A stretch of DNA of 64,000 nt from Candidatus Sulfomarinibacteraceae bacterium (GTDB lineage: Bacteria > Acidobacteriota > Thermoanaerobaculia > Thermoanaerobaculales > Sulfomarinibacteraceae), in contig CAVUHO010000003.1 of NCBI GenBank assembly GCA_963741385.1, forward strand, positions 134,833 through 198,832, written 5' to 3'. A model generated the notes under the pieces. It worked only from the letters and a program-made list of their open reading frames with translations, searched no databases and had not been told where the DNA came from. Below, in pieces: positions 11,183 to 39,575 of this stretch (positions are counted from its first letter, which is position 1; each line of letters starts with the position of its first letter). The position numbers were made by a program, and so were the translations under genes.

Positions 11183-13291
11183 TCACCCGACCATGATTCT
11201 GGCCTCGGGGTAGCCGACGGCGGCCTGCCGCTTCCTGCCGAACAGGAGCGCGAGGCTCAACGGGCCGATGCGGCCGATGAGCATGACAATGACAACCACC
11301 AGCTTGCCTGAAATCTTGAGTCCGGCCGTCGCGCCGAGTGAAAGGCCGACGGTGCCGAACGCACTCACGGTTTCGAACACCAGCGGCAGAAAGCCCTGGT
11401 TCTCCAGCGCCATCAGCGCCGTCGCCCCGCCCACGACCACCAGCATCGCGACGACAGCGATCGCCGCGCAGCGGAACACAGTCTCGAGGCTGATCGTGCG
11501 TTTGAGCAGCACCACCCGCTGGCGGCCGCTGGCGATCGCCGGGATCGCACTGAGCAGCACCACCAGCGTCGTCGTCTTGATGCCGCCGCCGGTGCCTCCG
11601 GGCGAGGCGCCGACAAACATCAGCGCCATGACGAGCATCAACGTCGCCGGCTGCAGAGCGTCGAAGCCCACCGAGTTGAAGCCGGCGGTGCGGCAGGTCA
11701 CGCTCTGGAACAGGGCGTTGACCAGCTTGTCGAGGGTGCCGAGGCCGGCCAGTCCGTGGTTCCACTCAGCGAGCGCGATCCCCACAAAACCGAACGCGGT
11801 CAGCGCGGCGGAGGCCAGGAGCACGATTCTCACCTGGGTCGCGAGCCCGACGTGGGCGCTGCTCTTGAGCCGCAACCAGGCAAAGGCGAGCACCGCGAAT
11901 CCGAGTCCGCCGAGGGTGATCAACGTCGCCATCACCAGGAGAACCAACGGCTGATCCTGAAATCCCACCAACGAGTCCGAGTAGAGGGCGAAGCCGGCGT
12001 TGCAGAAGGCGGAAACGGAGTGGAAGATCCCCAGCCAGGCGGCGGTCAACGGCGGTGCCCCGCGCTCGAATTCGACCGCACCGAGGATCGACGCGCCGAT
12101 GCCCTCCACCAGCAGCGTGCTGACGACGATGAAGCCGATCAGCCGGTAGGCGGCCGCCACCGACGGCAGGTCGAGCATGGCCCCCAGCGCCTGCTCGCCG
12201 CGCAGGCCGAGCCCGCGCCCGAGCAGGAGGGCGGCGAAGGTGGACAGCACCATGATATTGAGGCCGCCGATCTGGATCAGGAGCAGGACCACAAACTGGC
12301 CGAAGAACGACAGGTCGTGCGGCGTGTCGAGAACGATCAGGCCGGTGACGCAGGCCGCGCTGGTTGCCGTGAAGAGGGCGTCGACCGGCTGCAGAGGCGT
12401 GGCGTGGGCTGAGGCCGCGGGAAAGGTCAACAACAGGGTTCCGAAGCCGATCAACACCACGAAGCTGACCAGGATGAGCAGCGCCGGTCGTCCGTAGAAA
12501 AACTGGAGCACCTCGGCAATCAGGCTGCTGCGGGTCGCGAGAAGCACCAGAACGACGGCGTCGAAGGCGGCCAGGAGGGCGAGAGAGACCTCGGGCCGGG
12601 CGGCGGCCGCAATGGCGGCGGCCACGAGCACGAAAGGCGCGAAGACGTCCCAGCGCCCGCGTTTCGACAACTTGCGAAGGAAGCCTCCGGCGACCGCGAC
12701 CGCGAGCACCTGCAACGCGACGCAGACCGAATGTGCGGGCGCTCTCCAGCCGATTCCGTAGCCGACCACCGCGACGGTTGCGACCAGGGCGATCGTCAGG
12801 AGATGGCGGGCTGCGGGGCCGTTGAGCGCGAGCCAGGCGGCAACGTCGTCATCCGGATCGGATGGCTCCCGGCCGAGGAGCGTGAAGCGCGTCCTGACTG
12901 AGAGCACAATGCGGCTCAGAAGATAGAAGTTCCACAGAACGACGAGGCCTGCGATCACCGGGTTGGCGACCAACGGCGGGACGAACAGGCCGATGTTGAT
13001 GGCGAAGATCGCCATGGCACCGTAGGGCCCCCAACGGCTGCGGCGCGTCTGCGCCAGGATCGTCATCGTCAGGAGGACGAGGATTCCCGCCGAGTAAATG
13101 ACGCCGAACGGTGTGACTTCGTCGGATGGTCCGAAGTAGCTCTCCGGCATCGAGACCGCGAACTGCGCCAGCAGCGCAGCCGCCACCGCTCCCACCTGCC
13201 GCGCCATCTGCAGCCGGGCGCGCACGCCTGCGTGGTGCGCGTCGTCGGCGGCCGGGGGAAACATCTGGGGTCGCGGCATGGCATCGATCAT
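11183..13291 (-). CDS. trkH: TrkH/KtrB-family K+ transporter membrane subunit with a long N-terminal multi-TM extension
   Basis: 702-aa ORF. The core from about residue 270 (LLILVSFVVLIGFGTLLLTFP...TATSAACVTGL...CNAGF...RTAGFN...GGIKTTT) matches the TrkH/KtrB selectivity-loop pattern. The first 270 aa or so are extra hydrophobic segments. Confidence 0.85.
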   Translation of the reverse strand: MIDAMPRPQMFPPAADDAHHAGVRARLQMARQVGAVAAALLAQFAVSMPESYFGPSDEVTPFGVIYSAGILVLLTMTILAQTRRSRWGPYGAMAIFAINIGLFVPPLVANPVIAGLVVLWNFYLLSRIVLSVRTRFTLLGREPSDPDDDVAAWLALNGPAARHLLTIALVATVAVVGYGIGWRAPAHSVCVALQVLAVAVAGGFLRKLSKRGRWDVFAPFVLVAAAIAAAARPEVSLALLAAFDAVVLVLLATRSSLIAEVLQFFYGRPALLILVSFVVLIGFGTLLLTFPAASAHATPLQPVDALFTATSAACVTGLIVLDTPHDLSFFGQFVVLLLIQIGGLNIMVLSTFAALLLGRGLGLRGEQALGAMLDLPSVAAAYRLIGFIVVSTLLVEGIGASILGAVEFERGAPPLTAAWLGIFHSVSAFCNAGFALYSDSLVGFQDQPLVLLVMATLITLGGLGFAVLAFAWLRLKSSAHVGLATQVRIVLLASAALTAFGFVGIALAEWNHGLAGLGTLDKLVNALFQSVTCRTAGFNSVGFDALQPATLMLVMALMFVGASPGGTGGGIKTTTLVVLLSAIPAIASGRQRVVLLKRTISLETVFRCAAIAVVAMLVVVGGATALMALENQGFLPLVFETVSAFGTVGLSLGATAGLKISGKLVVVIVMLIGRIGPLSLALLFGRKRQAAVGYPEARIMVG

Positions 13292-25850: not shown

Positions 25851-27341
25851 GTGCGCGAAAGGGAGCACCTCCGTTTGCGTTATCGCGCGATCGCGTCCTT
25901 CGTCGGGCCCATTCTGGTGGCGGCCGGCGTGGTGATGATGTTGCCGCTCCTGATCCTCCCGAGCCACCCGGAGGAGGTACTTCGGGCACCGGCGTTCGTC
26001 GTTCCGGCCGCCGGTCTGATCGTCGTCGGCGGCCTGTGCCACAGAGGCATTCGCCGTCCCGCCGGTATCGTGCTGTCGATCCAGGAGGGGGGCATCATCG
26101 TGGTGATCACCTGGATCGTGGTCATTCTCGTGTCAGCCTTGCCGTTCGTGTGGCTGTCAGGTCTCACATTTTCGCGGGCGGTGTTCGAAGCGGTGAGCGG
26201 GTGGACCACGACCGGGCTTTCGGTCGTCGACGTCAACACTGCGGGCCCCCTGATCCTCCTCTGGCGAAGCGTCATGCAGCTGGCCGGCGGAGCGGGGTTC
26301 GCCATCATCATGATGTCGTCGATTCTCGGACCCACCGGGGTCGGTTTCGCCACGGCCGAGGGCAGGAGCGACCAGCTCGTTCCCCACGTCCGCGCGTCGG
26401 CACGTCTCGTCCTCGCCATCTACTCCGTGTATGCGGTGGCCGGCGTCCTGGCCTATCGGCTGGCCGGCATGTCGTCCTTCGACGCGGTCAACCATGCGTT
26501 CGCGGCGATCTCCACCGGCGGTTTCTCCACGCGCGCGCAGAGCATCGGCTACTGGGATTCCGTGGCTGTCGAGGCAGTGACGTTGCCGCTGATGATTCTC
26601 GGCAACCTCAGCTTTGTTACGGCGTGGTTCCTTGTGCGCGCAAAGCTCCGTTCGGTTGCGAGAAACGGCGAGGTCCGGCTGCTGGCGATCGTGGTTCCCC
26701 TCGCCGCGGCCATGATGTTCTTCCTGACCTGTCGGACGATATACCCTCAGCTTGGGAAATCGATTCGGGTGGCGGTGTTCGAGACGGTCACTGCACTCAC
26801 AACGACAGGTTTCTCGACTGTCAGCTACGCCGACTGGAACGCTTCCGGCATCCTCCTGATGATCGCCTTGATGCTGATCGGCGGCGGCACCTGTTCGACT
26901 GCGGGTGGCATCAAACAGTTTCGGGTGCACCTCCTGGCCAGCACTCTGGTGTGGGACCTCAAACGAGCGCTCATGCCGCGCACGGCGGTCGTGGCGCGTC
27001 CCGTTTGGGAGGGCGACCAGCGGGTCTTCGTGGACGATGCGAGGGTGCGACAGGTATCGACCTTCGTCTCCCTGTACCTGATGTCGTTCGTCGTTGGCAC
27101 GATGGTCCTGTGCGCCTGTGGCTACAGCCTGGGCGAATCACTGTTCGAGTTCGCATCCGCCCTCGGAACGGTCGGGTTGTCGGTCGGGGTGACGTCTCCC
27201 AACATGCCGGACGTCGCGCTCTGGGTAGAGGCTGTCGGGATGTTTCTCGGTCGGTTGGAGTTCATGGTCGTGATCGTGAGTGCGCTCAAGCTCGCCAAAG
27301 ACATGCGTCGCGCAATGGCGAGAGAATCCCACGGCAGCTGA
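25851..27341 (+). CDS. trkH: TrkH/KtrB-family K+ transporter membrane subunit
   Basis: 496-aa multi-TM ORF (GTG start) with loop motifs SGWTTTGLSV, STGGFST, LTTTGFST and GGIKQFR. Confidence 0.85.
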   Translation: MREREHLRLRYRAIASFVGPILVAAGVVMMLPLLILPSHPEEVLRAPAFVVPAAGLIVVGGLCHRGIRRPAGIVLSIQEGGIIVVITWIVVILVSALPFVWLSGLTFSRAVFEAVSGWTTTGLSVVDVNTAGPLILLWRSVMQLAGGAGFAIIMMSSILGPTGVGFATAEGRSDQLVPHVRASARLVLAIYSVYAVAGVLAYRLAGMSSFDAVNHAFAAISTGGFSTRAQSIGYWDSVAVEAVTLPLMILGNLSFVTAWFLVRAKLRSVARNGEVRLLAIVVPLAAAMMFFLTCRTIYPQLGKSIRVAVFETVTALTTTGFSTVSYADWNASGILLMIALMLIGGGTCSTAGGIKQFRVHLLASTLVWDLKRALMPRTAVVARPVWEGDQRVFVDDARVRQVSTFVSLYLMSFVVGTMVLCACGYSLGESLFEFASALGTVGLSVGVTSPNMPDVALWVEAVGMFLGRLEFMVVIVSALKLAKDMRRAMARESHGS

Positions 27342-27969: not shown

Positions 27970-28023
27970 TCGGCGCCACGAACCCTGTTGCTGCATGAGC
28001 TGTCTGAAATCGGGGCAGATCGA

Positions 28024-28135
28024 TGCCAGGAGAAACGTCGTCAACTTTCTTGATCGTTGAGAGGAACATTGTCGGGAGAGCTGCGCGAGTCTCGGGGTGG
28101 CGAAGCAAACAAAGTTAAGAAAGTTTCTCCTGGCA
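28024..28135 (+). mobile_element. 112-bp MITE-like element, copy A
   Basis: Perfect 13-bp terminal inverted repeats TGCCAGGAGAAAC...GTTTCTCCTGGCA. Near-identical copies lie at 30350..30461 (same orientation) and 39454..39565 (inverted). All are followed by CCGATA. Confidence 0.8.
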
Positions 28136-28339
28136 CCGATACTGCGCGGCGTCGTGGTCGGCCGCAAGAACCACTATGGCTCGAAGTCGAAACGAGGCAC
28201 CGAGGTCGTGGCGCTCTTCTACACCCTCTTCGAAACCGCGAAGCTGAGCCAGATCGACCCGCGTGCCTACGTCACCCTGGCGGCGCACCGCGCCATCGCC
28301 GAGCACGGCGCAATCACCCTGCCCTCAGACCTCTCCTGA
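28136..28339 (+). pseudogene. IS66-family transposase C-terminal remnant
   Basis: The translation LRGVVVGRKNHYGSKSKRGTEVVALFYTLFETAKLSQIDPRAYV matches the conserved C-terminal GRKN...AKL..(I/V)(D/N)P..YL block of IS66 transposases. The N-terminal 400 aa or more are absent, and the fragment abuts MITE copy A. Confidence 0.65.
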
Positions 28340-28610: not shown

Positions 28611-29228
28611 ATGAGGTTTTTCCTGTTGGCCATCATCGCGGCGATCACCTTGGTCGGCCCAAATCATATTGCAGTCGCACAAGACGCTGAAATGCCGGTT
28701 CCTGGACTGGTGGTAAAGGACGCTGACGGAAAGGTGATGGGGCAGGTGGACGGGTTCTTGCCAGGGACTTCGGGTACGCTCTATCCAGTCGTTGTTTTCA
28801 ATATTGAAGGGAGTCTCGCCTTCTTAGTCTATCGGCCCTATGGTCTGATCGACGGAGTAGCGCACGCAGCTGGAAACTTGGGCGGTCCCACCGTTTATTT
28901 TTCAGGCTCCGACTGCACAGGGAATTCATACGTCAATATTGTTCACCCGGATGGAGTCGAAGCACAGTCCGGATATGCCTATGGCGTAGGTGGGCCAGAT
29001 CCGACTTCAGGGGAATACAAACTGTACCGCTCCAACACGCTGGCAGCCGGCATGTCCTTCGTGACCTCGAAATGGGAAGGTGGTACCTGCAGGAACTATG
29101 GCCCAACAGACCCGGACGTACTTTCCGCAGAGGAAGTTGTTCCCAACCCCCTCGCCGGTTTCCACGGCCCGACAACCGCCAACCCCGAACGCGTGCTGAC
29201 CATTGAGGGTGGCACGAGGCTTCCGTAA
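28611..29228 (+). CDS. Secreted hypothetical protein (paralog pair, member 1)
   Basis: 205-aa ORF after GGAG with signal peptide MRFFLLAIIAAITLVGPNHIAVAQ. The C-terminal 33 aa (SAEEVVPNPLAGFHGPTTANPERVLTIEGGTRLP) are nearly identical to the next gene. Lower G+C than the flanks. Confidence 0.7.
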   Translation: MRFFLLAIIAAITLVGPNHIAVAQDAEMPVPGLVVKDADGKVMGQVDGFLPGTSGTLYPVVVFNIEGSLAFLVYRPYGLIDGVAHAAGNLGGPTVYFSGSDCTGNSYVNIVHPDGVEAQSGYAYGVGGPDPTSGEYKLYRSNTLAAGMSFVTSKWEGGTCRNYGPTDPDVLSAEEVVPNPLAGFHGPTTANPERVLTIEGGTRLP

Positions 29229-29243
29229 AGAAAGGAGAATGCT

Positions 29244-29828
29244 ATGAGGTCATTTCTTTTCACCTTGGCAGCCATCTCTTTCCTGTTAACCCCAAGCCAA
29301 AGCGCGGATGCCCAAAGCGCAGAAATGCCGTTGCCGATTGCTGTCGTGAAGGACGCGGACGGGAAGTTGATTGCTCAAATCGTCGATATTGGGCCTAATG
29401 AGGGATCCGATCCCAAAGTACTACTCAACATAGGTGGCACCCCTGTCCCTTTTAGAGTTTCACCTCTCAAGGGGGTGTTTGAATCTCAAAGATTTGCCTA
29501 TTTCCCCTTTGAAAATTGCAGTGGTAGCCCAGCCATAACCCCTCCCCTAGCCATTGGTTGGGACTCCTTTTCTCAAACGAGTTTTGCGGTGGTTGGTCCG
29601 GACCCTGACTCTGGGACGTACAAGGTCTATCGATCGACTTCGCCAACTCCCGTGGCGTTTTCCCCTCTTTCCTATTGGATTGACGGATCCTGCGATGGCA
29701 TAACTGGGCAGACTTTGCTGTCTCCTGCAGAGGAAGTTGTTCCCAACCCCCTCGCAGGCTTCCACGGTCCGACAACCGCCAACCCCGAACGTGTATGGAC
29801 GATCGAGGGCGGCACGAGGCTCCCATGA
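29244..29828 (+). CDS. Secreted hypothetical protein (paralog pair, member 2)
   Basis: 194-aa ORF after AGGAGAA with signal peptide MRSFLFTLAAISFLLTPSQSADAQ. The N-terminal motif AEMP.P..VVKDADGK and the C-terminal block are shared with 28611..29228. Confidence 0.7.
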   Translation: MRSFLFTLAAISFLLTPSQSADAQSAEMPLPIAVVKDADGKLIAQIVDIGPNEGSDPKVLLNIGGTPVPFRVSPLKGVFESQRFAYFPFENCSGSPAITPPLAIGWDSFSQTSFAVVGPDPDSGTYKVYRSTSPTPVAFSPLSYWIDGSCDGITGQTLLSPAEEVVPNPLAGFHGPTTANPERVWTIEGGTRLP

Positions 29829-30295: not shown

Positions 30296-30349
30296 GGTTT
30301 TGGATTGGAGAACGTGCCAATGAGGCATTCCCATAGTGGTGCCTAGTGG

Positions 30350-30461
30350 TGCCAGGAGAAACGTTGTTAACTTTCTTGATCGTTGAGAGGAACATTGTCG
30401 GGAAAGCTGCGCGAGTCTCGGGGTGGCGAAGCAAACAAAGTTAAAAAAGTTTCTCCTGGCA
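30350..30461 (+). mobile_element. 112-bp MITE-like element, copy B
   Basis: Same 13-bp TIRs and internal sequence as copy A, with a few substitutions. Same orientation. Confidence 0.8.
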
Positions 30462-30496
30462 CCGATATAGAGTACTACTAAGCCGCATCGGCATCA

Positions 30497-30555
30497 GTGC
30501 CAGGTACATAGTTACGGAGTTGTGAAATGTAACTGCGGAACTCCGTACCTGGCAC
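30497..30555. repeat. 59-bp REP-like imperfect palindrome R1
   Basis: GTGCCAGGTAC...GTACCTGGCAC ends. Aligns along its full length to the reverse complement of R2 (32597..32655). It lies 3 nt beyond the stop of the 30559..32454 gene. Confidence 0.75.
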
Positions 30556-30558
30556 CGA

Positions 30559-32454
30559 TTAGGGAGTCCCGCCGGTTGCGGCGACGCGACGGCCGACCCG
30601 GCGCGGCGCCGGGTTGAGCCCGAGTGCCCTCTTGATCCGGTTGCCGTCCGCCAACGAGATCCCCGCCGAAGGGATGACGATGGTCTGGTCGTCACCGCCC
30701 ATCGGCGGCAGGCCCTGCGGCTGGTTGTTGACAATGATCGCCGCCACGGCGCCCGCATCTTGTGCGTTCTTCACCTTTTCGACGAACAGGCACGTACCGC
30801 GGTCGATGACGGCGATCTTACCCGTGATCTCGCTGGCGTTGACCAGCGGTTCGCAACCCAGGATCGGCGCATTCGAGCCGTCGCGGACCACGGCCAGATC
30901 TCCGGAGACCCCCACAACGCTCACCGGCGGCCCGAACTGGGCCGTCTGTACCGCGTAACCCCCAGCCAGGCTCGGAGGTGAGTTGATGAGAAGCCGCGGG
31001 GCGTTGCCGAGAATCTGAGGCGCTGCATCGACAGAGGCCGGCCCATCCCAGACCAACCGCCCGGTGTTGACGGCGGAGGTCCGACGTTCGTCGTTGGTCA
31101 TGACGTTCCAGTGCAGACCGATCTCCGAGTCGAAGGTGTAGACGCTGTAGATGCCGGGTTGCCGCGGGAGGCCGGCAAAAAACGGCAGCGACCCGGTGCT
31201 GGGATCAACGAAGCTCTGAAACCCCAGCCCGTGCGCGATCTCGTGGAGGGCCACCATGGCGAAGGAGGCCTGGCCGCTCGGCGTGTTGCCGTCCAAACCA
31301 TAGTAGAAGCGGTAGGACGGCGCCAGGCAGCCCTCGTCAATTCGGCTGTTGAAGTTGGCCACAACGTCGCCGGTGTTCGAGGGCCGGTTATTTTCGGTCG
31401 TGCTGAGGTTTTCGCCCGCCAGGGCTTCGGCGAGAGCGCCGGAATACCAGGTTCCCTGGCGAGGGGCGTTCGCGAAATCGGAAAACAGGTAGCGCGTACC
31501 GGCCGCCGCCAGAACCGCCCCTTCATCGGGATCGCAGTCGAACTCGTCGAAGGCTGCGTCAATGTTGATCTCGATCTCGCTGCCGAGGAGAGTCCCCCAG
31601 ACGTCCGCAGCCCACTGCAAAGCGGCAAGCCGCTGTCCACCAACAGTGGTCCCTCCCGGGTTGGCGGGAGACTCGGGGACAACGGTGGCATCGTTGAAGC
31701 CTTCGCCACTGGAGTCTTGAACCCTGATGGTCACGGTAGAGGAGCCGGCGGGCCAGCCAATGTCCTGGAAAAGCGGGAGCGTGAGGTCGACCTCGCCGAA
31801 GCCGACGCCCGGCGACGCGGTCGGCTCCATCAGAAGGTCAGGGGTGGCCGAAAGGTCCCAGTGGGAAATCGAGGAGCCCAGCTCGAGCGGATCCGGGTTG
31901 TAGAGCAACGGCCGCCCCAGCGTGTCGGCGCCGGCCAGACGAGTCGGGTCGATGGCGAGGCTCGCGGAGACCTCGGCCGCCTTGAAGGACAGCTGCGACG
32001 GTGGCGCGACCGCCAACAGCCCGAGGGAGAGCGGGACATCGATTCCGGCCTTTGCCGAACCGAGGCCCATCAGCTTTTCCACCGCTTGCACATGGTCAAC
32101 ACACGACGTCGCGAACGAGCCGTCCGCTCGCACCTGGACCATGAAGACGTGCCGAAAGCGACCGTCGAGGTCAACCCCTCTCCCGCCGTTGTCGAGATCG
32201 AAGACCTGCAGGCCATCAGTTGAACGGCTGAGGGCGTTCATGATGGCGCCCGACAGCGGGCCAGATTCCTCGCGAGGTTCCGCTGGAACAACCTGATTGG
32301 GCCCGTCATCAGTCGCGGCTCTCACGACCGAAGGAGCGCCGTCGGGACCCGGCGATGCGGCCGCCACTCCCGCGAGCGGCACCACACAGATGGCGATGCA
32401 GCACAGTATGGTCACTCGGAAACGGAGATTGACTCCAGCGTGCACTCGTTTCAT
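30559..32454 (-). CDS. Secreted zinc metalloprotease-like protein with HExxHxxG motif and a C-terminal PA (protease-associated) domain
   Basis: 631-aa ORF with signal peptide ...CVVPLAGVAAASP. VALHEIAHGLGF motif. PA-domain pattern GKIAVIDRGTCLFVEKVKNAQDAGAVAAIIVNN. Confidence 0.75.
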   Translation of the reverse strand: MKRVHAGVNLRFRVTILCCIAICVVPLAGVAAASPGPDGAPSVVRAATDDGPNQVVPAEPREESGPLSGAIMNALSRSTDGLQVFDLDNGGRGVDLDGRFRHVFMVQVRADGSFATSCVDHVQAVEKLMGLGSAKAGIDVPLSLGLLAVAPPSQLSFKAAEVSASLAIDPTRLAGADTLGRPLLYNPDPLELGSSISHWDLSATPDLLMEPTASPGVGFGEVDLTLPLFQDIGWPAGSSTVTIRVQDSSGEGFNDATVVPESPANPGGTTVGGQRLAALQWAADVWGTLLGSEIEINIDAAFDEFDCDPDEGAVLAAAGTRYLFSDFANAPRQGTWYSGALAEALAGENLSTTENNRPSNTGDVVANFNSRIDEGCLAPSYRFYYGLDGNTPSGQASFAMVALHEIAHGLGFQSFVDPSTGSLPFFAGLPRQPGIYSVYTFDSEIGLHWNVMTNDERRTSAVNTGRLVWDGPASVDAAPQILGNAPRLLINSPPSLAGGYAVQTAQFGPPVSVVGVSGDLAVVRDGSNAPILGCEPLVNASEITGKIAVIDRGTCLFVEKVKNAQDAGAVAAIIVNNQPQGLPPMGGDDQTIVIPSAGISLADGNRIKRALGLNPAPRRVGRRVAATGGTP

Positions 32455-32596
32455 TTCAAACTCCTCGACGACCCCATGTCAGCATACTCAAACACGGCTC
32501 ACTCTGGGAACCACACGAACGGCATCTCGAATTTCATCCCCTCACAACGTTGTCACGCATTCGAAGCCCCGCAAGGGCGTCGAATGAATGCAATGG

Positions 32597-32655
32597 GTGC
32601 CAGGTCCGGAGTTACGCAGTTACAGATCACAACTCCGTAACTCCGTACCTGGCAC
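32597..32655. repeat. 59-bp REP-like imperfect palindrome R2 (inverted relative to R1)
   Basis: Its reverse complement aligns to R1 with a handful of substitutions. It lies 143 nt upstream of the start of the 30559..32454 gene and is followed by CGAT, like R1 and the MITEs. Confidence 0.75.
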
Positions 32656-32903
32656 CGATGTTCTGCCACCATGCTTTCGTGTGTGGCGACTTTGCCGGAA
32701 CTGGCGCCTTCGAGACCCCACGCGATTGCGTTGGCGAACCGGACGCGTTCGGTCAGCGAATCAAACACGGCGGGGGAAAGGAGCACGCAGGCCGCGCGGC
32801 CGGCACCGAAACCGATCCCACCCAAGCCAACCGCCGCGTGGCGATCCTCATCAAGGACAAGGCCAAGTGACCTCGACCCGGAGGGCCGGCTGGGCAACGC
32901 CTC

Positions 32904-35900
32904 TCAGCCCGGCGGTCTGCCCCGCCCCAGGCTGACGAAGAACCGTCCGCCGGTCATCGCGGGATCGTCCGGATAGCCGAGAGCCTCGAAGTCGAGGCGC
33001 CGCTCGACGCCGGGGTAGACCTTTCGGGCATGCTCGGGACGGTCCATCCCCTTGGCGGCACGGTGGCAGCGCACGCAGTTGGCGGCCTCGACGCTGTGGC
33101 AGTCGGTGCACCCCAGGGCCGTCACGGCAGGACCGACCCCGTGGTGAAGCCCTGTGTAAAGGGTTGTCTCCACCCACTCGAAGCGGCCCGAGTACTCGAG
33201 CCCCATGGCCTTCATGCCGTCTCTGATCGACCGCTCCCAGCTGAAGTCCGCCCAGTAGTCCGCCGACAGCTTCGGTATGGCGAGCACACGCGATTCGGCG
33301 TCGACCGGTTGGATTGCGGTATGGGCCTTGAACGGGAAGATGCGCGCCGCCGGGTTTCGCTTGTCCCCGGACGGTGGGTTGAGGAGAACGCCGCGCGAAG
33401 AGTTGACCTTCTCTCCGACCAGGGTCGCGCGGCGGCTGCCGTCGAACCACAGGTACACCGGCACCTGGTCCATGCCCCAGCGAAGGGTCCCGAAGCGGCG
33501 GTCGTAGGTCGGCATGCCGTAGCGGTCCAGCTCCTCCACCCTGTCCTCGCCCGCCACCGAGTAGTCCCGGTGCAGCAGGGTGGGTGTGGCGCGCGCGAAC
33601 GCGGGAATGTGGCAGGTCTCGCAGGCGATGCTGCGGACGTGGTCGTCCAGGTGCTGCCCCAGCATGCCGACGACACCGTGCGGCGTGGAACCGTGGCACT
33701 GCTCGCAGGACACTCGCCCCTCCATTGCCGGGGCGGTCATGGACATACCGGCGATGCGGTGGTGAGTCGTCGTGTGGCAGTCCTGGCAGCGCATGTTGCG
33801 CCTGCCCATATGCTGATCGAGGTCTGCGGACGGATCGGCAAGCTGCGGCTCGAGGTCCCCGTGCTTGGCGTTGGGCGCGCCGCCACTCTGGAAGTGGCAG
33901 GACCCGCAGGTCGCGCGTGACGGACGACCGACCTTGCGGGCGACCGCCACCAGGTCGACCTCCGGCAACGGCATGCCGGCCTGCAGAGGGTCCTTGCGGT
34001 AGGTGCCCGTGGTGTCGTGGCAGACCAGGCAGTCGATGTTGGATGGATCGGTGAAGTCGAAGCCCTCGTCGACCCAGCCGTAGCCGATGTGGCAGGTCGC
34101 ACAGGCCTGGGGGTTGGAGCCGATGGCGATGCAGTAGTTGTTGACCATGAGCTGCAGGCTGATGTCGGTGCGGTGCTGGTAGCCGACGAGGGTCGGCGAC
34201 TGGCCCTTCCAGTTCCAGTGCGCGGTCACCAAGAGGTCGTCGCCGACGCGGGAGTGGCACGCCAGGCAGGCACGGGTAGTCTCCTGCGGGGAGGGCCGCT
34301 CCGGCAGCTCGACGAGGAGGCTGTGGTCGGGCGTCCACGGATGGTGGCACGAGCTGCACTCGGTGGGCGCCGGGGCGGGCTGCATGCGGCGCTCATGGCA
34401 GCCGATGCACTGGCGGTGGTACGCGCCCTTGAGCCCGAGACGCGCAGGGGCGTCCTCCTCGTTGGGCATGCCGTGGCAACGAGCGCAGGACTGCGGCGGG
34501 TTGTCCGCCATGTCCTCGTGGCAGCCGGAACAGGCGCCGCCGATGGGCACGTCGATGGACTCGTGGAGCTCGACAATGTCCTCGCCGACCCGGTCGTCGT
34601 CGTCCCATGAGTAACGGTGGTGGCAGACGCCGCAGTCCCCCCCGTTCAGCTCGTCGTGAATGCGGTGGGAGAAGGCCACCGGCTCATAGTCGTCCGAGGC
34701 GGCGTTCAGCATCGGGTTGGAGAGGACGTAAACTCTCCTGTACCTATCGGGTCGCAGCGGGTACGCATCTCTCGTCGCCTCCACGTGGACGGGTTCGGCG
34801 GCCGTGACCCGCTGAACTTCGGCCACGGTCTCTCGGGAGGCCGCAATCGCAGATCGGTGCACCAGAGAGTACGTGAGGACGAAACCGAGAAGCACCGCGA
34901 CGGCCGAGGCCCGGATCACCCAGGTCCACCGCGACGGCACGGTGCGCGCTCGTTCCTCGCGAAGACTCGCAAGCTGCGCGCTGGTAGCCGGGACGTAGCC
35001 CGGGAGGATGGGGAAGAAGGTCACCAGCAGCCGGTAGCAGAACAGGATGCTGGAGACGATGGCGATGGTCATGGCGATCTCGCCGATGGACGGGAAGTAT
35101 GTCGTGGTGGAGTACGGAGGGTTGTAGCCCACGAGGAACACGTTGATCCGGTTGAGGATCACACCGAAGATGATGAGGGCGATCGCAAAGAACAGCCAGC
35201 CCATGGACCGCCGCACCGCCTTGTTGAGCAGGAGAAGGAAGGGGGCGACCACGCCGATCAGGATTTCGACGACCAGGGCAATCGTCGCACCCGGGTTGTC
35301 GAGGAAATCGATCTGGTTGTGGCGGACGACGAGGTCTCCGATCTTCACCACACCGTAGGCCGCCAGGAACCAGGGAATGATGCGCGCCAGAGGTGTCAGC
35401 AGCTCCATTTCCGCCTTGCGACCGAAGCTGATGTTGGCGTAAATGGACTCCAGAATGACCATCGGGAAACCGACCATGAGTGCCGACAGCAGGAAGAGCA
35501 GAGGCAGGATCGAGGTGTCCCACAGCGCGCTCATTTTGGTGGTGGAGATCAACATCAAGGTGCCGAGAGAGGACTGGTGCATGCAGGACAGCACCACGCC
35601 TGCTACGACGAAAATCGGCAGAACGATGTTCACCCACGAGTGCAGGGCGTCCACGGGCTTCTCGAGGCGGTGCAGAAACCGTGCTCCCGTGGAGTCCTCG
35701 GCAATCCGGTCCTTGAGCCCCTCCAGAATCGAGGGACTCATCTCGACGCTCAGAATCACCAGATAAAAGGTGACGCACATGGCCACCTCGAAAAGCACCG
35801 AGTTGCCCTGCCAGTTGAACAGAGGCCGCCACGAATTCCAATAGCGGCCGAGATCGAAGAGCAGAGCAATGGCAACCCACAGGTAGCCCAGGAATGCTGT

Positions 35901-36185
35901 CAGAAGCGCTGGGCGCAGCAGCGCCCGGTATTTCCTGCGGCCGAAGATCTCCACCAGGGCGGCGGTGAGGAACCCGCCGGCGGCGAGGGCGACGCCGCAG
36001 GCCACGTCGAAAGCGATCCAAATACCCCAGGGATTGTGATTGTCGAGATTGGTCACCGACCCCAACCCGAGGAACAGACGGGTGATGCCGAAGGAAAAGC
36101 CGATTCCCATGAGGATCAGCAGGGTGAGCGTGCCGAAGGTGAAAAACGGCTTGGTGACGCGATGGGGACGGTCGTTGGCACTCAT
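32904..36185 (-). CDS. NrfD/PsrC-like polytopic quinol-interacting membrane protein fused to a 14-haem c-type cytochrome domain
   Basis: 1093-aa ORF. The N-terminal 430 aa or so are NrfD-like TM helices (NPWGIWIAFDVACGVALAAGGF...). The C-terminal 620 aa or so contain 14 CxxCH motifs, counted in the translation. The last 8-9 haems resemble the octahaem tetrathionate-reductase-type family by recollection (IDCLVCHDTTGTYRK, CGSCHFQSGG). ATGA overlap with the upstream FeS gene. Confidence 0.8.
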   Translation of the reverse strand: MSANDRPHRVTKPFFTFGTLTLLILMGIGFSFGITRLFLGLGSVTNLDNHNPWGIWIAFDVACGVALAAGGFLTAALVEIFGRRKYRALLRPALLTAFLGYLWVAIALLFDLGRYWNSWRPLFNWQGNSVLFEVAMCVTFYLVILSVEMSPSILEGLKDRIAEDSTGARFLHRLEKPVDALHSWVNIVLPIFVVAGVVLSCMHQSSLGTLMLISTTKMSALWDTSILPLLFLLSALMVGFPMVILESIYANISFGRKAEMELLTPLARIIPWFLAAYGVVKIGDLVVRHNQIDFLDNPGATIALVVEILIGVVAPFLLLLNKAVRRSMGWLFFAIALIIFGVILNRINVFLVGYNPPYSTTTYFPSIGEIAMTIAIVSSILFCYRLLVTFFPILPGYVPATSAQLASLREERARTVPSRWTWVIRASAVAVLLGFVLTYSLVHRSAIAASRETVAEVQRVTAAEPVHVEATRDAYPLRPDRYRRVYVLSNPMLNAASDDYEPVAFSHRIHDELNGGDCGVCHHRYSWDDDDRVGEDIVELHESIDVPIGGACSGCHEDMADNPPQSCARCHGMPNEEDAPARLGLKGAYHRQCIGCHERRMQPAPAPTECSSCHHPWTPDHSLLVELPERPSPQETTRACLACHSRVGDDLLVTAHWNWKGQSPTLVGYQHRTDISLQLMVNNYCIAIGSNPQACATCHIGYGWVDEGFDFTDPSNIDCLVCHDTTGTYRKDPLQAGMPLPEVDLVAVARKVGRPSRATCGSCHFQSGGAPNAKHGDLEPQLADPSADLDQHMGRRNMRCQDCHTTTHHRIAGMSMTAPAMEGRVSCEQCHGSTPHGVVGMLGQHLDDHVRSIACETCHIPAFARATPTLLHRDYSVAGEDRVEELDRYGMPTYDRRFGTLRWGMDQVPVYLWFDGSRRATLVGEKVNSSRGVLLNPPSGDKRNPAARIFPFKAHTAIQPVDAESRVLAIPKLSADYWADFSWERSIRDGMKAMGLEYSGRFEWVETTLYTGLHHGVGPAVTALGCTDCHSVEAANCVRCHRAAKGMDRPEHARKVYPGVERRLDFEALGYPDDPAMTGGRFFVSLGRGRPPG

Positions 36186-37138
36186 CGCTCGTTCCCCTCT
36201 GCTGCCCGCTCACCGGCCTCAGCGGCCTCCTCACCGTCGTCGGCTTCCGCGTGGCGATGGTTGAACCACATGATCCCGGCAAGAGCGCCATACAACGCGA
36301 CCGGGAGAATGCCATACTTGAAGATGCCGTGCTGGATGGCCTCCGTGCGCAATGCCGGTGCTCTCTCGGGCAGCGGCAGCAGGCCGATCTCTTCCACCGG
36401 CCGGCCAGTCAGGTAGAGCCAACCCGTTCCGCCCACCTCCTGCTCCCCATAGACCTTCTGCACATAGCGGTCCGGCCGCCCCTCCAGGCGCTGGTGGGCG
36501 ATCGCCAGGAGATCGGCGCGTTTGCCGGCAACGAGGGTCTCGGTCGGACAGGCTGCTGCGCACGCCGGATCAGCGCCGCCGCCGGCTGTCGTGCCCGTGC
36601 ACAGCTCGCACTTTCGCACTCTGGGCGCCAGGGCCGTGTCGTACTCGTAGGCCAGCACCTCGAACGGGCAGGCCACCATACAGTAGCGGCAGCCGATGCA
36701 CACGGTGGGGTCGTAGACCACGGCACCGTCAGGCGCCTTGGTCAACGCGCCGACGATGCAGGCCGACACGCACGACGGGATGAGACAGTGCATGCACTGA
36801 ACCTTGGCGAAGGTCACCGGCAGCTCGGTCTGGTCCGGCGACGGGCTCCCTCGGAACTGGTTGACGACAGTGAAGGCGTTCTCGGAAGGCCGACGGAAGG
36901 TGTGCAACACCTCGCGATCCGAGAAGGAGCCGGAGGTGCGCGGCAGGAGGTTGCGCCGATTGCACGCCTCCTCACACTTCCGACACCCGATGCACAGCGT
37001 TGTGTCGACGAGGACACCGGCGTAGTCCGGGGAAACGGTGTGTCTCTCTGCGGCGCCCTCGGCGGGTGCCGGCGCCGTGCCGCTGACTACTGCCGCTGCG
37101 CCGAGGCCCACGAAAGCGCGGCGATCGAGTCGCTTCAT
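36182..37138 (-). CDS. Tat-exported 4x[4Fe-4S] ferredoxin-type subunit (NrfC/PsrB/HybA-like) with a C-terminal membrane anchor
   Basis: 318-aa ORF. Twin-arginine signal MKRLDRRAFVGLGAAA. Cluster motifs CIGCRKCEEAC, CMHCLIPSCVSAC, CIGCRYCMVACP and CELC...CAAACP. C-terminal hydrophobic helix ILPVALYGALAGIMWF. Confidence 0.85.
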   Translation of the reverse strand: MKRLDRRAFVGLGAAAVVSGTAPAPAEGAAERHTVSPDYAGVLVDTTLCIGCRKCEEACNRRNLLPRTSGSFSDREVLHTFRRPSENAFTVVNQFRGSPSPDQTELPVTFAKVQCMHCLIPSCVSACIVGALTKAPDGAVVYDPTVCIGCRYCMVACPFEVLAYEYDTALAPRVRKCELCTGTTAGGGADPACAAACPTETLVAGKRADLLAIAHQRLEGRPDRYVQKVYGEQEVGGTGWLYLTGRPVEEIGLLPLPERAPALRTEAIQHGIFKYGILPVALYGALAGIMWFNHRHAEADDGEEAAEAGERAAEGNER

Positions 37139-37157: not shown

Positions 37158-37195
37158 ATTGTAATATCTTTTGCTCACTTGTGAATCTGCTCACA
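37158..37195 (-). promoter_or_regulatory. Candidate sigma-70 promoter overlapped by a perfect CRP-type palindrome
   Basis: Read on the minus strand: TGTGA-gcagat-TCACA (37180..37195), which equals TGTGA-N6-TCACA. -35 TTCACA, a 16-bp spacer, -10 TACAAT (37158..37163), then GGAGGG and the ATG at 37138. Confidence 0.5.
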
Positions 37196-37198
37196 AAA

Positions 37199-38342
37199 TA
37201 AAAGTGCCATAAAAGTGCCATAAAAGTGCCAGTAAAAGTGCCAGGTACGGTGGTTATGATGTTATAATGTCCTTACCTCAATTGGTGGAGATGGGGGATG
37301 GGGCGTCGACCGCGGATACTTTTGCCTGGTGGTATTTACCACGTGTACAACCGGACGTCCCGTGGCGAGGACGTTTTCCGTGAGGACGAAGAGGCCGATC
37401 GGCTCGAGGGCCTCATCTCTGCGACGAAGGCGCGAGACGACTTCCAGATCCTCGCCTGGTGCATCATGTCGAATCACTACCACCTCGCGGTGCGGATGGG
37501 AGAGGTCCCATTGTCACGATCGATGCGAACGATCCACCATAGGTTCGCACAGAGCTTCAACGGTCGGCACCGCGTCTTCGGTCCGTTCTGGCAGGGCCGT
37601 TTCCGGTCGAAGTTCGTGGGCGACGACGAGTATGTGAGACGGCTCATCGCATACATCCATCTCAATCCGGTGACCGCCGGAATCGTGAGAGATGCGGCGC
37701 AGTATCGGTGGTGTGGGCACCGCGAGGTGGTCGGTAGGGCGGCGGGACGTCGTCTGGTCGATGTCAACGAGACGCTGATGTCGTATCACCCGAAGCGAAG
37801 GGATGCGCTGGCGGGGTACCGCGAGGCGATGTCATCGACGCTGGCTGAGGAATGGCGGTCGGAAGGCCCGGGGCACCTTCCCTGGTGGAAGGTCGGTCGC
37901 CCGAAGGGTGGCGATGACGAGCGGGAGATCGAGGTCGACGAGGCGAAGCCTCGGATCCAGATGAACGGGCGGAGCAACGTCGAGATGAGGCCGAGAATGG
38001 AGATCGCCAGGTTCATCGAATTGGGTGCGGACGCCTGTGGCGTTATGGCAGCCGACTTGAGGAGCAACAGGCGGGGATCGCCGGTGGTGGAGGCGCGAGA
38101 GATCCTGGCCTGGCTTGGGACAATACTGTACGGGTTCAAGGTCAAAGAGATCGCGGCAGGATTCGACAAGTACGGAGAGACGGCGAGTCGATTGGTGAGC
38201 AGAGCGGCGCGGCGTAGGATGGACGATGTGGGCTTCGCGGACCGGATCCAAAGCGTCGATTCCGCGATCACGAAGGGGGCGACTGGGGTCGAGAAAAAAT
38301 AACATCATAACCACCGTACCTGGTACCTTTTTGGTACCTTTT
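37199..38342 (+). mobile_element. RAYT-type (IS200/IS605-like Y1) transposase unit with perfect 23-bp inverted repeats and 11-bp subterminal tandem repeats
   Basis: Left IR CCAGGTACGGTGGTTATGATGTT (37241..37263) is the exact reverse complement of 38301..38323. Outside the IRs there are four copies of TAAAAGTGCCA on the left (37199..37243) and two of TGGTACCTTTT on the right (38321..38342). Confidence 0.8.
37298..38302 (+). CDS. REP-associated tyrosine transposase-like protein (Y1/HUH) with a C-terminal DnaA-C-like HTH domain
   Basis: 334-aa ORF with GGIYHVYNRTSRGEDVF, the HUH motif SNHYHLAV, FWQGRF and the catalytic Tyr region AYIHLNP. The C-terminal segment REILAWLGTILYGFKVKEIAAGFDKYGETASRLVSRA resembles the DnaA domain IV HTH. 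Confidence 0.8.
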   Translation: MGRRPRILLPGGIYHVYNRTSRGEDVFREDEEADRLEGLISATKARDDFQILAWCIMSNHYHLAVRMGEVPLSRSMRTIHHRFAQSFNGRHRVFGPFWQGRFRSKFVGDDEYVRRLIAYIHLNPVTAGIVRDAAQYRWCGHREVVGRAAGRRLVDVNETLMSYHPKRRDALAGYREAMSSTLAEEWRSEGPGHLPWWKVGRPKGGDDEREIEVDEAKPRIQMNGRSNVEMRPRMEIARFIELGADACGVMAADLRSNRRGSPVVEAREILAWLGTILYGFKVKEIAAGFDKYGETASRLVSRAARRRMDDVGFADRIQSVDSAITKGATGVEKK

Positions 38343-39569
38343 CGCGAGCCCTTCGTGGCCCATGAACGTGTGCCACTGTCGTTCACCATCGGAGTTCAGC
38401 TTGACGGCAAAACCGTTATCCCCTCCACCGTGTGAATGAACGGGCGTTCTCCACGAGGCATCGCTGGCACCACTACTACCGGCATCCTCGATGAAATTCA
38501 GGATGTTGCGGCCGAGAACACCATCGACGACCTCCTGCGGGTACCCACGCTCGGTGAGACGCCGGCCGATCCTCGAGAAAGCATCCTCGCGGTTGAGGCT
38601 GGCCGGCACGTACCTCCCTCCAGCCTGAAGATCGGAGCCGATGCCAACGTGATCGGGACCGAGATGCCCGATCAACTCGGCGATCTGGTCGACCATCAAC
38701 TCCAGTGCATCCGCTTCCGGATCACCTGCCAGCAGATCTGAGGCGTTGAACGACACCCAGACTGATCCGCCGGTCTCCCCGAGCTTCGCCACGACGTCGT
38801 CAGGCAGGTTGAATGCCGTAGGGCTCACCTCAGCGGTGAGGCTGTGGGTCGCGACCACCGGCGCTCTCGATTGTTTGATGATTACCAGTTTCTGCGGATG
38901 ACTCAGGTGGGTGATGTCGATCGAGACGCCGGTTTCATTCATGGCCTCCACGATCCGTTTCCCGAATGGCGTCAATTCGTTCGATCGATCGCCGACACCG
39001 AAGAGCCCGTCGGGGTCCTTCTCCACGAGACCGATGATTCGCACCCCGAGATTTCGAAACCGCTCCACCCTCCCTGGATCTCCATCGAAAATCCTGTCAA
39101 ACCACTCGATGGAGAACAGGAGGCGAAGGTCGTTCTCTGGAGCGCTGCCCGGCTTCTCGTGCGGACCGACGATCGAAAAACCCGCGTCCGTCGCCGCAGC
39201 CCGCCGAAGCTCCGTCATTTCGCTGACAATGCGGGACTCCACATCCGATGTTTTCGATCGGTCGAGGGGCAGTGGAACCACCACCGTATCGATGCCGCGA
39301 GATCGCACTGCCGCGAGCCGTGAGAGGTCCAGCCGGCCGCCCCTAATACCAATGACGTCGTGGTTGTGGCCGTCGACCACCGGGCTCGGCTCGCCCGCGA
39401 TCGCAGGCGGGCACAACGAAAAGACGATCAACGCGGCTGCGTATCGGTATCGGTGCCAGGAGAAACTTTCTGAACTTTGTTTGCGTCGCCACCCCGAGAC
39501 CCGCGCAACTCTCTCGACAATTTTCTTCCTGGCGATCAAGAAAGTTAACAACGTTTCTCCTGGCATCAC
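38268..39569 (-). CDS. Peptidase M19 (membrane dipeptidase) family protein with both ends remodelled by mobile elements
   Basis: M19 motifs DGHNHD, ITHLSH, VVATHS and GIGSDL. The first 38 codons or so lie in MITE copy C and the last 25 codons or so lie in the right end of the RAYT unit. The native start and stop are therefore uncertain. Confidence 0.6.
   Translation of the reverse strand: MMPGETLLTFLIARKKIVERVARVSGWRRKQSSESFSWHRYRYAAALIVFSLCPPAIAGEPSPVVDGHNHDVIGIRGGRLDLSRLAAVRSRGIDTVVVPLPLDRSKTSDVESRIVSEMTELRRAAATDAGFSIVGPHEKPGSAPENDLRLLFSIEWFDRIFDGDPGRVERFRNLGVRIIGLVEKDPDGLFGVGDRSNELTPFGKRIVEAMNETGVSIDITHLSHPQKLVIIKQSRAPVVATHSLTAEVSPTAFNLPDDVVAKLGETGGSVWVSFNASDLLAGDPEADALELMVDQIAELIGHLGPDHVGIGSDLQAGGRYVPASLNREDAFSRIGRRLTERGYPQEVVDGVLGRNILNFIEDAGSSGASDASWRTPVHSHGGGDNGFAVKLNSDGERQWHTFMGHEGLAKRYQKGTRYGGYDVIFSRPQSPPS
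39454..39565 (-). mobile_element. 112-bp MITE-like element, copy C (inverted)
   Basis: Reverse complement of copies A and B, with the same 13-bp TIRs. The CCGATA flank is duplicated (TATCGGTATCGG at 39442..39453). Confidence 0.8.
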
Positions 39570-39575
39570 TAAGTC

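Follow-up and report, generated by a model that had tools for sequence, protein, structure and literature searches.

A quinone-module protein fused to an octahaem tetrathionate reductase-family cytochrome, and its iron-sulfur partner, in a Candidatus Sulfomarinibacteraceae bacterium

Cytochromes of the octahaem tetrathionate reductase (OTR) family are widespread, but dispute continues over their physiological substrate and the supply of their electrons. The active-site haem of OTR, haem 2, takes as its axial ligand a lysine located outside the CxxCH motif (PMC12285233). A study of multihaem cytochrome evolution omitted OTR as a structural outlier, and a genetic study of 2026 found no role for OTR in the tetrathionate respiration of Shewanella (PMC12949373). 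We analyzed a 64,000-nucleotide stretch of contig CAVUHO010000003.1 from a Candidatus Sulfomarinibacteraceae bacterium (hereafter, the window), which contains a two-gene operon encoding an iron-sulfur (FeS) subunit and a membrane protein of the NrfD superfamily. The membrane protein continues into a 14-haem cytochrome that includes an OTR-family domain, in which the lysine ligand of haem 2 is replaced by leucine.

Literature searches found no published description of an NrfD/HybB-OTR fusion or of an unfused operon of this kind, and a review of NrfD-like subunits contains no such complex among those given (PMC8076601). What is new is the covalent arrangement and an active site without Lys; the logic of the system is already known.

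Composition and occurrence of the fusion

The operon consists of two minus-strand open reading frames (ORFs) of 318 aa (gene 1) and 1093 aa (gene 2), in which the stop codon of the first overlaps the start codon of the second as ATGA. Both were found where a sequence-only reading of the same DNA had placed them (Table 1). Gene 2 contains exactly 14 CxxCH motifs, at residues 518, 552, 567, 593, 610, 640, 695, 719, 760, 800, 827, 855, 1026, and 1037, in agreement with the count made by that reading, and the motifs it quoted were all present. This number is far beyond chance, since every other ORF of the 64-kb window contains at most one such motif.

The product of gene 1 is a periplasmic FeS subunit of the HybA/HmcB type. 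It carries 16 Cys in four [4Fe-4S] motifs (Cys 49-59, 115-127, 147-157, and 177-197) between a twin-arginine translocation (Tat) signal and a C-terminal helix, as expected for four-cluster subunits of the NrfC/PsrB/HybA type. The NCBIfam scores were under the equivalog cutoffs for both HmcB (317.8 bits versus 420) and HybA (261.1 versus 263). The nearest relatives with solved structures were FdnH and NrfC/PsrB-type subunits.

The N-terminal part of the gene 2 product matched Pfam NrfD (PF03916) with 63.1 bits, compared to a gathering score of 25.8, over residues 44-354. It forms a HybB/HmcC-type domain of ten helices, which presumably contains a quinone/quinol site and a proton pathway. Equivalog cutoffs were again not reached (HybB, 323.8 bits versus 450; HmcC, 269.6 versus 550), and the domain aligned collinearly with HybB of E. 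coli (34% identity). HybB residues R89, Y99, E148, and H184, whose replacement impaired the activity of hydrogenase-2 (Hyd-2) (cited in PMC8076601), were invariant in 35/35 aligned fusions, as were the proposed quinone-site residues D58, D109, S129, and E133. The residues invariant across the 35 fusions included D60, D111, S129, E133, R91, Y101, E148, H203, K217, E307, and R346. A different kind of residue was found in the fusions at five of the 25 quinone-site and ion-pathway positions of HybB given in PMC8076601. As far as the conserved residues indicate, the membrane domain looks functional. A hydrogenase association, considered on account of the HybA/HybB matches, was rejected: no hydrogenase genes were found in the window or in related loci, and the scores were under the cutoffs.

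A full-length AlphaFold2 (AF2) model was moderate in quality (predicted local distance difference test [pLDDT] score of 61, and below 50 in the c3-like module described below) and was built without haems. The membrane domain of this model matched ActC of Alternative Complex III with a TM-score of 0.67-0.71 in a Foldseek search. ActC and ActF (0.55-0.71) were the best structural matches of the model apart from the OTR structure 1SP3. A phmmer search of the membrane domain against PDB sequences returned nothing, and the link to ActC comes from the fold search only.

Both hydropathy and the AF2 model gave ten helices for the NrfD-like part. This part is followed by a cytoplasmic linker rich in Arg and by an eleventh transmembrane helix (TM11), placed by AF2 at approximately residues 418-457, and the linker with TM11 was conserved and could be aligned across all fusions. 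The predicted cytoplasmic loops contain 20 Lys/Arg, compared to 4 in the periplasmic loops. Both termini of ActC and ActF are reported to be cytoplasmic (PMC8076601). Because both ends of a ten-helix ActC-like fold are cytoplasmic, helix 11 brings the haem domain into the periplasm, where the Tat-exported FeS partner is also located. The periplasm is the only compartment in which c-type haems are attached.

The haem domain starts with a c3-like module of five haems, which matched the C-terminal domain of the 16-haem HmcA (1H29, 2E84, and 1GWS; E ~1e-20) and nine-haem cytochromes; the NCBIfam HmcA score was 71, compared to a cutoff of 400. Seven non-motif His are invariant in this module, which is presumed to serve as an electron wire and as a docking domain for the FeS subunit. 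The eight-haem domain that follows belongs to the OTR family, scoring 450.5 bits with TIGR04315 (cutoff, 375) over positions 14-430 of the 440 in the model. Shewanella OTR (1SP3) was the best solved-structure match of gene 2 (E 1.9e-105, residues 634-1031), and the AF2 model matched it with a TM-score of 0.73 in Foldseek. Among 50 diverse OTRs, approximately 95 positions show at least 80% conservation, and the domain departs from the consensus at seven of them. The eight motifs and H38, H171, H190, H218, H226, and H400 (1SP3 numbering) are present in the query, that is, the gene 2 product, and in 82-83 of the 83 members of its clade, and all bis-His ligand candidates of the 14 haems are invariant. 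The 14th haem lies in a C-terminal extension that has no counterpart in Shewanella OTR but is shared by every fused clade and by unfused c3+OTR proteins.

The domain map thus bears out the outline drawn by the sequence-only reading, which had proposed a Tat-exported FeS subunit (here, with a twin-arginine motif, 16 Cys, and a C-terminal helix) and a single chain joining NrfD-like, c3-like, and OTR-like parts. It had regarded a cytoplasmic haem domain, or a C-terminal part unlike any catalytic octahaem family, as fatal to that outline; the helix count, the charge distribution, and the ActC match place the haem domain in the periplasm, and the profile, sequence, and fold matches to OTR agree on the C-terminal part. 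Two of its assignments required revision. Its typing as NrfC/PsrB with NrfD/PsrC stands at the level of the NrfD superfamily but not for NrfD/NrfC or PsrC/PsrB proper, as both parts belong to the HybB/HybA and HmcC/HmcB type. Its division of the haems into five c3-like ones and an OTR-like remainder holds for the first five, and the remainder consists of eight OTR haems and one haem in the C-terminal extension.

We searched 5.8 billion proteins and obtained more than 100 clusters (90% identity) of full-length NrfD-multihaem fusions, 1085-1101 aa in length and 54-100% identical to the query. Further full-length fusions with 45-49% identity were found by an exhaustive search of representatives. 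A scan of one genome per species yielded 80 loci, nearly all with a full-length fusion and all in metagenome-assembled genomes (MAGs), corresponding to at least 80 species-level genomes. The fusion is thus common in uncultured bacteria of soil and sediment. The hosts belong to Acidobacteriota (Holophagae, Thermoanaerobaculia, Terriglobia, Aminicenantes, and Ca. Polarisedimenticola), NC10, Binatia, Myxococcota, Desulfobacterota, and Planctomycetota; the genomes nearest to the window are Holophagae and Thermoanaerobaculia MAGs (81-83% identity). The FeS gene is immediately upstream of the fusion in 74/80 loci and is its sole conserved neighbour. No conserved third gene for a catalytic partner, a maturation factor, or an outer-membrane component was found across the 80 loci, where all other recurrent neighbours (a haem-c sensor kinase with its response regulator, a CbcL-like protein, and a sigma-54 regulator) were restricted to particular clades.

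Transmembrane-anchored c3+OTR proteins of approximately 700 aa also occur. We predicted that these would adjoin separate FeS and NrfD-like genes, and this came true in the cultured Desulfatibacillum (CP001322.1) and on a metagenomic contig. The Desulfatibacillum genes for the FeS subunit (312 aa), the NrfD-like protein (387 aa), and the cytochrome (712 aa, 13 haems) are adjacent in this order, and their products are 49%, 48%, and 41% identical, respectively, to the corresponding parts in the window. A comparison of the NrfD C-terminus and the cytochrome N-terminus indicated that the N-terminal signal-anchor of the Desulfatibacillum cytochrome corresponds to TM11 of gene 2. As the unfused operon has the same order, homologous parts, and a signal-anchor matching TM11, gene 2 of the window corresponds, by sequence comparison, to the second and third genes of such an operon fused into one. 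In a rough neighbour-joining tree, a quick estimate that does not settle the number of fusion events, unfused forms separated the fused ones into two or more groups.

The gap between the NrfD-like and cytochrome genes of Desulfatibacillum is 4 nt, so that a single sequencing error in an operon of this kind could mimic a fusion. An assembly or annotation artefact of this sort is extremely improbable in the present case: the ORF is continuous, full-length fusions recur in over 100 independent clusters and in 80 or more genomes, which come from many different studies and platforms, and the linker with TM11 is conserved. The frameshift or missed stop that the sequence-only reading had considered is effectively ruled out by this conservation of the fusion. 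Its view of the arrangement as unusually compact did not hold as a statement of rarity, because the arrangement is widespread and also exists unfused as a three-gene operon.

Several other arrangements were observed in the survey. The metagenomic contig with the unfused FeS, NrfD-like, and c3+OTR genes (ERZ27262647 k141_464719; L088 761-8713) carries genes for a molybdopterin oxidoreductase and a second FeS protein before this set and a NarJ-like chaperone gene after it; the molybdoenzyme and the OTR-like cytochrome may share one membrane module. In the cytochrome of this contig, Lys56 (OTR numbering) is present and Cys64 is missing. We also found an HmcB-like FeS protein fused to a HybB-like membrane protein (704-771 aa; P0144 and P0150), tandem or extended OTRs with 16-22 haems (P0130, P0143, and P0149), and HybB-like domains fused to 5-13 c3-type haems without an OTR domain (P0131 and P0126). 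A sensor histidine kinase bearing CxxCH and a response regulator adjoin the fusion operon in one subclade (11-12 loci; Table 1). The CxxCH is in the periplasmic part of the kinase, which is a candidate redox or substrate sensor for the fusion system. A sigma-54 regulator gene is located beside the operon in eight loci. CbcL-like genes (multihaem c plus Ni_hydr_CYTB cytochrome b) adjoin the fusion in 9/80 genome loci, in L002 (3959-5941), and in L005 (10325-12262); L002 also encodes multihaem cytochromes of 412 and 920 aa, and L005 contains ResB/CcsA haem-maturation genes.

The haem-2 site and the predicted electron pathway

We take the lysine ligand of canonical OTR to be Lys56, the number reportedly given by Mowat 2004, which fits the chain numbering C74/C77/H78. 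Position 56 was read from large alignments and directly from the sequence. It was K in 48/50 diverse OTR representatives and L in 77/83 members of the query's clade, in which the query has Leu677. Cys64 was retained in the query (C685) and in 81/83 of its clade, and Lys153 was also retained. Uniform, clade-specific changes were found at further positions conserved in OTR (K247L, W250R, W252Y, K275F, and F278L), and the new residues L, L, R, and F are each 93-95% conserved within the clade. Lys56, Cys64, K247, W250, K275, and haem 2 co-varied as a block across 65 genome loci and 188 proteins. The pattern K-C-K-W-K occurs in standalone OTRs, the Desulfatibacillum protein, and many fusions of Myxococcota and Desulfobacterota, and the pattern L-C-L-R-F occurs in the query's clade (Acidobacteriota/NC10/Binatia); intermediate forms without Cys64 exist. 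Co-variation, rather than coordinates, suggests that the changed positions putatively line the haem-2 pocket.

Haem 2, Cys685, and the new residues are uniformly conserved in the query's clade, which argues that the modified site is under selection rather than in decay. The haem-2 site is probably still in use. Its substrate or chemistry probably differs from that of canonical OTR, because the Lys ligand is gone and the candidate pocket residues are replaced, while Cys685 and the haem are kept. There is a precedent in functional NrfA variants that have His in place of Lys as the proximal ligand (PMC12285233). Canonical fusions are the neighbours of the query's supergroup in the tree, consistent with stepwise remodelling.

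His78 (query His699, window 34089-34091) was invariant (18/18) in a clade that lacks the haem-2 cysteines. There are seven bis-His haems and six other universally conserved His, which suggests that His78 serves a neighbouring haem. Canonical OTR would need Lys56 in that case, since His78 would ligate the neighbouring haem.

In the proposal we favour, to which we assign a probability of roughly 0.55, the products of the two genes would form a membrane-bound oxidoreductase of two subunits. It would connect the quinone pool with a multihaem cytochrome in the periplasm and work as a quinol-linked reductase with a remodelled site. Subunit 1 would be exported in folded form by Tat with its four [4Fe-4S] clusters and held at the membrane by the C-terminal helix. 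The HybB/HmcC-type domain, in which the proton-pathway residues of HybB are kept, would bind quinol on the periplasmic side, and electron transfer may be coupled to protons. Helix 11, once probably the signal-anchor of a separate cytochrome, would return the chain to the periplasm, where the five-haem c3-like domain and then the nine-haem OTR-like domain would be located. Electrons would pass from menaquinol to the FeS clusters, through a predicted contact to the c3-like haems, and along the OTR-like haem chain to haem 2, which would reduce a small periplasmic substrate. The catalytic site would have been rebuilt by the replacement of the Lys ligand with Leu677 and of two further lysines with Leu and Phe and by the gain of Arg and Tyr, with Cys685 and the haem remaining. 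The existence of fusions with a canonical site adjoining the query's supergroup was counted in favour of this proposal.

The sequence-only reading had similarly proposed a single-chain quinol:substrate oxidoreductase with a putative catalytic haem end. The presence of a quinone domain, a wire, and an OTR-family domain in one chain with an FeS partner supports its architecture; the canonical OTR site was not found, as the Lys ligand is Leu and the co-varying positions are changed. Catalysis at the OTR-like end is plausible, not secure.

Several points weigh against a quinol-linked reductase. The physiological substrate of canonical OTR is itself disputed (PMC12949373), and the OTR-defining Lys ligand is missing from the query (Leu677). 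A sister clade with the same fusion has lost both haem-2 cysteines and Cys64, leaving 13 haems; as such haem-2-less clades keep everything else, the fusion can evidently be maintained without the haem-2 site. The AF2 model is moderate (pLDDT 61) and haem-free, and the location of the changed residues in the pocket is putative. Furthermore, HybAB of Hyd-2, HmcBC, and NhcBC are generally held to send electrons toward the quinone pool.

The last point would suit operation in reverse, in which a periplasmic donor (e.g., thiosulfate, sulfite, or hydroxylamine) or other cytochromes would deliver electrons through the FeS subunit to reduce quinone. The FeS and membrane parts scored best with HybA/HybB and HmcB/HmcC, a match to the HmcA/NhcA C-terminal domain was found for the haem module, and Hyd-2 (HybAB), Hmc, and Nhc, being generally considered quinone-reducing, provide the precedent. 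The remodelled Cys and Arg site may bear a loose likeness to the sites of the thiosulfate-oxidising TsdA and SoxA. No sequence feature tells the direction of electron flow. We nevertheless consider this direction unlikely, given that the characterised enzymes of the OTR family are reductases in vitro (PMC6449678, PMC12949373) and that the tetrathionate/thiosulfate couple (+198 mV, quoted in PMC8528874) is too positive for menaquinone reduction without energy input.

The sister clade without haem 2, which retains the 13-haem chain and the fusion, also fits the main rival to the reductase, namely a non-catalytic conduit. The complex would then be a quinol dehydrogenase like CymA, CbcL, or ImcH, with the OTR scaffold as a haem wire only. 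Electrons would be passed to soluble periplasmic or outer-membrane partners, perhaps via the C-terminal haem, providing an entry to extracellular or inter-protein transfer. Such a role agrees with the loss of the Lys ligand in the query's clade and with the ninth haem and conserved tail at the C-terminus of the OTR domain in all fused clades. It also agrees with the CbcL-like multihaem/cytochrome b genes adjacent in 9/80 loci and the large multihaem cytochromes in some. However, a mere wire needs neither haem 2 nor Cys64 nor the uniform L, L, R, Y, F set, all of which are kept in the query's clade. Moreover, outer-membrane porin-cytochrome genes are not linked to the fusion, and neither the window nor the majority of loci has the CbcL-like neighbour. 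We consider a conduit considerably less likely than the quinol-linked reductase.

A bolder, rather doubtful proposal is that in the query's clade the OTR-like domain is a new catalytic haem centre and not a degenerate OTR. Haem 2 would be ligated differently, by the motif His, by Cys685, or by Tyr875, with Arg873 in the pocket. It would catalyse another sulfur or nitrogen redox reaction, powered by the quinone pool and coupled to protons, in what would in effect be a single-chain enzyme. TsdA and SoxA, with their His/Cys haems, would offer a parallel to such a centre, as would MccSep, reportedly described in 2026 as a polysulfide-reducing protein, with its Cys-ligated haem. If true, uncultured phyla of soil and sediment would contain an enzyme with this centre in abundance.

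The fusion and its unfused counterpart wire an OTR-type domain to a HybAB/HmcBC-type quinone module in many lineages, sometimes covalently. This direct link to the quinone module makes the electron pathway concrete and testable, and Desulfatibacillum is a cultured organism in which the canonical form is open to genetics. The Lys-ligated, Lys-less remodelled, and haem-lost sites form a natural series that could reveal the purpose of lysine ligation and could show multihaem enzymes turning into electron wires, or the reverse. Databases label the fusion proteins as 'Ni/Fe-hydrogenase cytochrome b subunit' or 'tetrathionate reductase family octaheme cytochrome', and because of such labels, metabolic reconstructions of uncultured Acidobacteriota, NC10, Binatia, and Myxococcota may misread the fusion.

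Surroundings of the operon in the window

The features of the operon are summarized in Table 1. The promoter-like match is weak evidence, as one match was found in the region where 0.5 was expected. Terminator-like hairpins were not above chance (two found, 2.7 expected), and the hairpin after gene 2 is suggestive by its position alone.

Table 1 Features of the operon in the window and of related loci.
Feature	Position	Strand	Basis or remark
Gene 1, 318-aa periplasmic HybA/HmcB-type FeS subunit	36182-37138	-	NCBIfam, Pfam Fer4_11
Tat signal of FeS subunit, aa 1-31	37046-37138	-	Twin-arginine motif RRAFVG
C-terminal membrane anchor of FeS subunit, aa 270-296	36251-36331	-	Helix
Gene 2, 1093 aa	32904-36185	-	
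NrfD-superfamily HybB/HmcC-type ten-helix domain, residues 8-395	35001-36164	-	Pfam, NCBIfam, fold
Arg-rich cytoplasmic linker and eleventh transmembrane helix, residues 396-445	34851-35000	-	Hydropathy, AF2, positive-inside
c3-like five-haem module, residues 494-625 (CxxCH 518, 552, 567, 593, 610)	34311-34706	-	HmcA match
OTR-family eight-haem domain, residues 631-1033 (CxxCH 640, 695, 719, 760, 800, 827, 855, 1026)	33087-34295	-	TIGR04315, 1SP3
Active-site segment overall	34089-34157	-	
Leu677 (for OTR Lys56)	34155-34157	-	
Cys685 (= Cys64)	34131-34133	-	
Haem-2 motif C695ATCH699	34089-34103	-	
Second changed group: Leu870 (OTR K247), Arg873 (W250), Tyr875 (W252), Phe898 (K275)	33492-33578	-	Clade-specific
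C-terminal extension, residues 1034-1093, with 14th haem C1037VRCH1041	32907-33086	-	Tail LGYxDDPA..GGRF..GRG conserved
Sigma-70-like promoter match TTCACA-16-TACAAT, 10/12	37158-37185	-	20 nt upstream of gene 1
Terminator-like hairpin	32863-32881	-	23 nt past gene 2 stop codon
Haem-c sensor kinase loci	L016 1984-3492; also L010, L011, L014, L018, L021, L023, L035, L046, L061, L063, L073		

The genes flanking the operon are unrelated to it. They encode a secreted PA-domain protein, an IS200-like transposase, and an M19 dipeptidase, and a catalytic partner gene is absent, as the sequence-only reading had stated. The transposase gene (Y1 type, Pfam Y1_Tnp; 37298-38302, plus strand) is directly upstream of the operon and divergently transcribed, and it is flanked by 47-nt inverted repeats (37234-37280 and 38284-38330). 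Three intergenic copies of a palindromic element of approximately 120 nt were found nearby (28019-28142, 30344-30467, and 39447-39571). These copies are 85-97% identical, contain internal inverted arms of 30-33 nt that are 56 nt apart, and matched nothing among the Rfam families. They look like a miniature inverted-repeat transposable element (MITE) or a repetitive extragenic palindromic (REP)-type repeat, and the Y1 transposase may be a REP-associated tyrosine transposase related to them.

The cytochrome gene is closely followed downstream by the gene for the secreted PA-domain protein (30559-32454, minus strand), which has 631 aa and contains an HExxH motif. Inverted repeats of 69 nt that are 88% complementary (30492-30560 and 32592-32660) bracket this gene. 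Beyond it, tandem paralogues on the plus strand (28611-29228 and 29244-29828) encode small secreted proteins of 205 and 194 aa without a Pfam match, and the final 98 nt of the two genes are 89% identical. A large protein, probably of the surface or adhesin type, is encoded at 3449-9166 (minus strand); its 1905 aa include seven DUF11 repeats, a domain like SdrD B, and a beta-helix region. The window also contains overlapping ORFs for a CHAT-domain protein (954 aa) and then a subtilase with a DUF5666 domain (703 aa) at 57300-62242 (plus strand), and two separate TrkH-family genes (11183-13291, minus strand; 25851-27341, plus strand).

Comparison with known systems

The OTR-like domain is homologous over its full length to Shewanella oneidensis OTR, with which it shares the eight CxxCH motifs in order, six distal His, Cys64, and Lys153. 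However, Shewanella OTR is a soluble protein of approximately 440 aa, whereas the domain in the window ends a 1093-aa membrane protein. Compared to OTR, the window protein has Leu in place of Lys56 and L, R, Y, and F in place of K247, W250, W252, and K275, and a ninth haem and a 60-residue tail have been added.

The operon of Desulfatibacillum aliphaticivorans/alkenivorans has the same three parts in the same order, the TM11-like signal-anchor, and the layout of c3-like module, OTR domain, and extra haem. It differs in that genes 2 and 3 are separate and the site is canonical (K56, C64, K247, W250, and K275). No experimental characterisation of this operon was found in the literature.

HybA and HybB of E. 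coli are the best-scoring models for the FeS and membrane parts, and HybB is collinear with the membrane domain, with the tested residues kept. Unlike in Hyd-2, the scores in the window are under the cutoffs, hydrogenase genes are not nearby, and the electron partner is the fused cytochrome. The Hmc and Nhc complexes of Desulfovibrio (HmcABC.. and NhcABCD) likewise combine a multihaem c3-type cytochrome with an HmcB-type FeS protein and an HmcC-type subunit. Their cytochrome is separate, soluble, and without an enzyme-like domain, whereas the window lacks HmcDEF and all equivalog cutoffs were missed. Identity with the Ohc complex of Desulfovibrio was considered and rejected, as its membrane subunit OhcC is a haem-b protein (PMC4641369) and the subunit in the window is NrfD-like, without cofactor motifs.

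The order of components also resembles that of MccACD/SirACD and NrfABCD, in which an NrfD-like quinol site is connected by an NrfC-like FeS protein, and in some cases a pentahaem wire, to a catalytic cytochrome of the NrfA/MccA/OTR superfamily. Those systems consist of separate polypeptides with other catalytic families (MccA and NrfA) and membrane subunits of eight helices. Alternative Complex III offers the best fold match in its ten-helix ActC, has a transmembrane-anchored pentahaem ActA beside an FeS subunit, and shares the route from quinol through FeS clusters to haems. Its haem parts have no detectable sequence relationship to those of the window protein, ActB is approximately 950-1040 residues long, and the complex is unfused and has no enzyme-like end. 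CbcL of Geobacter has a dihaem cytochrome b of the HydC/FdnI type as its membrane part and neither an FeS partner nor an OTR-like domain; like the window protein, it joins a quinone-reactive membrane domain and a periplasmic multihaem c domain in a single chain.

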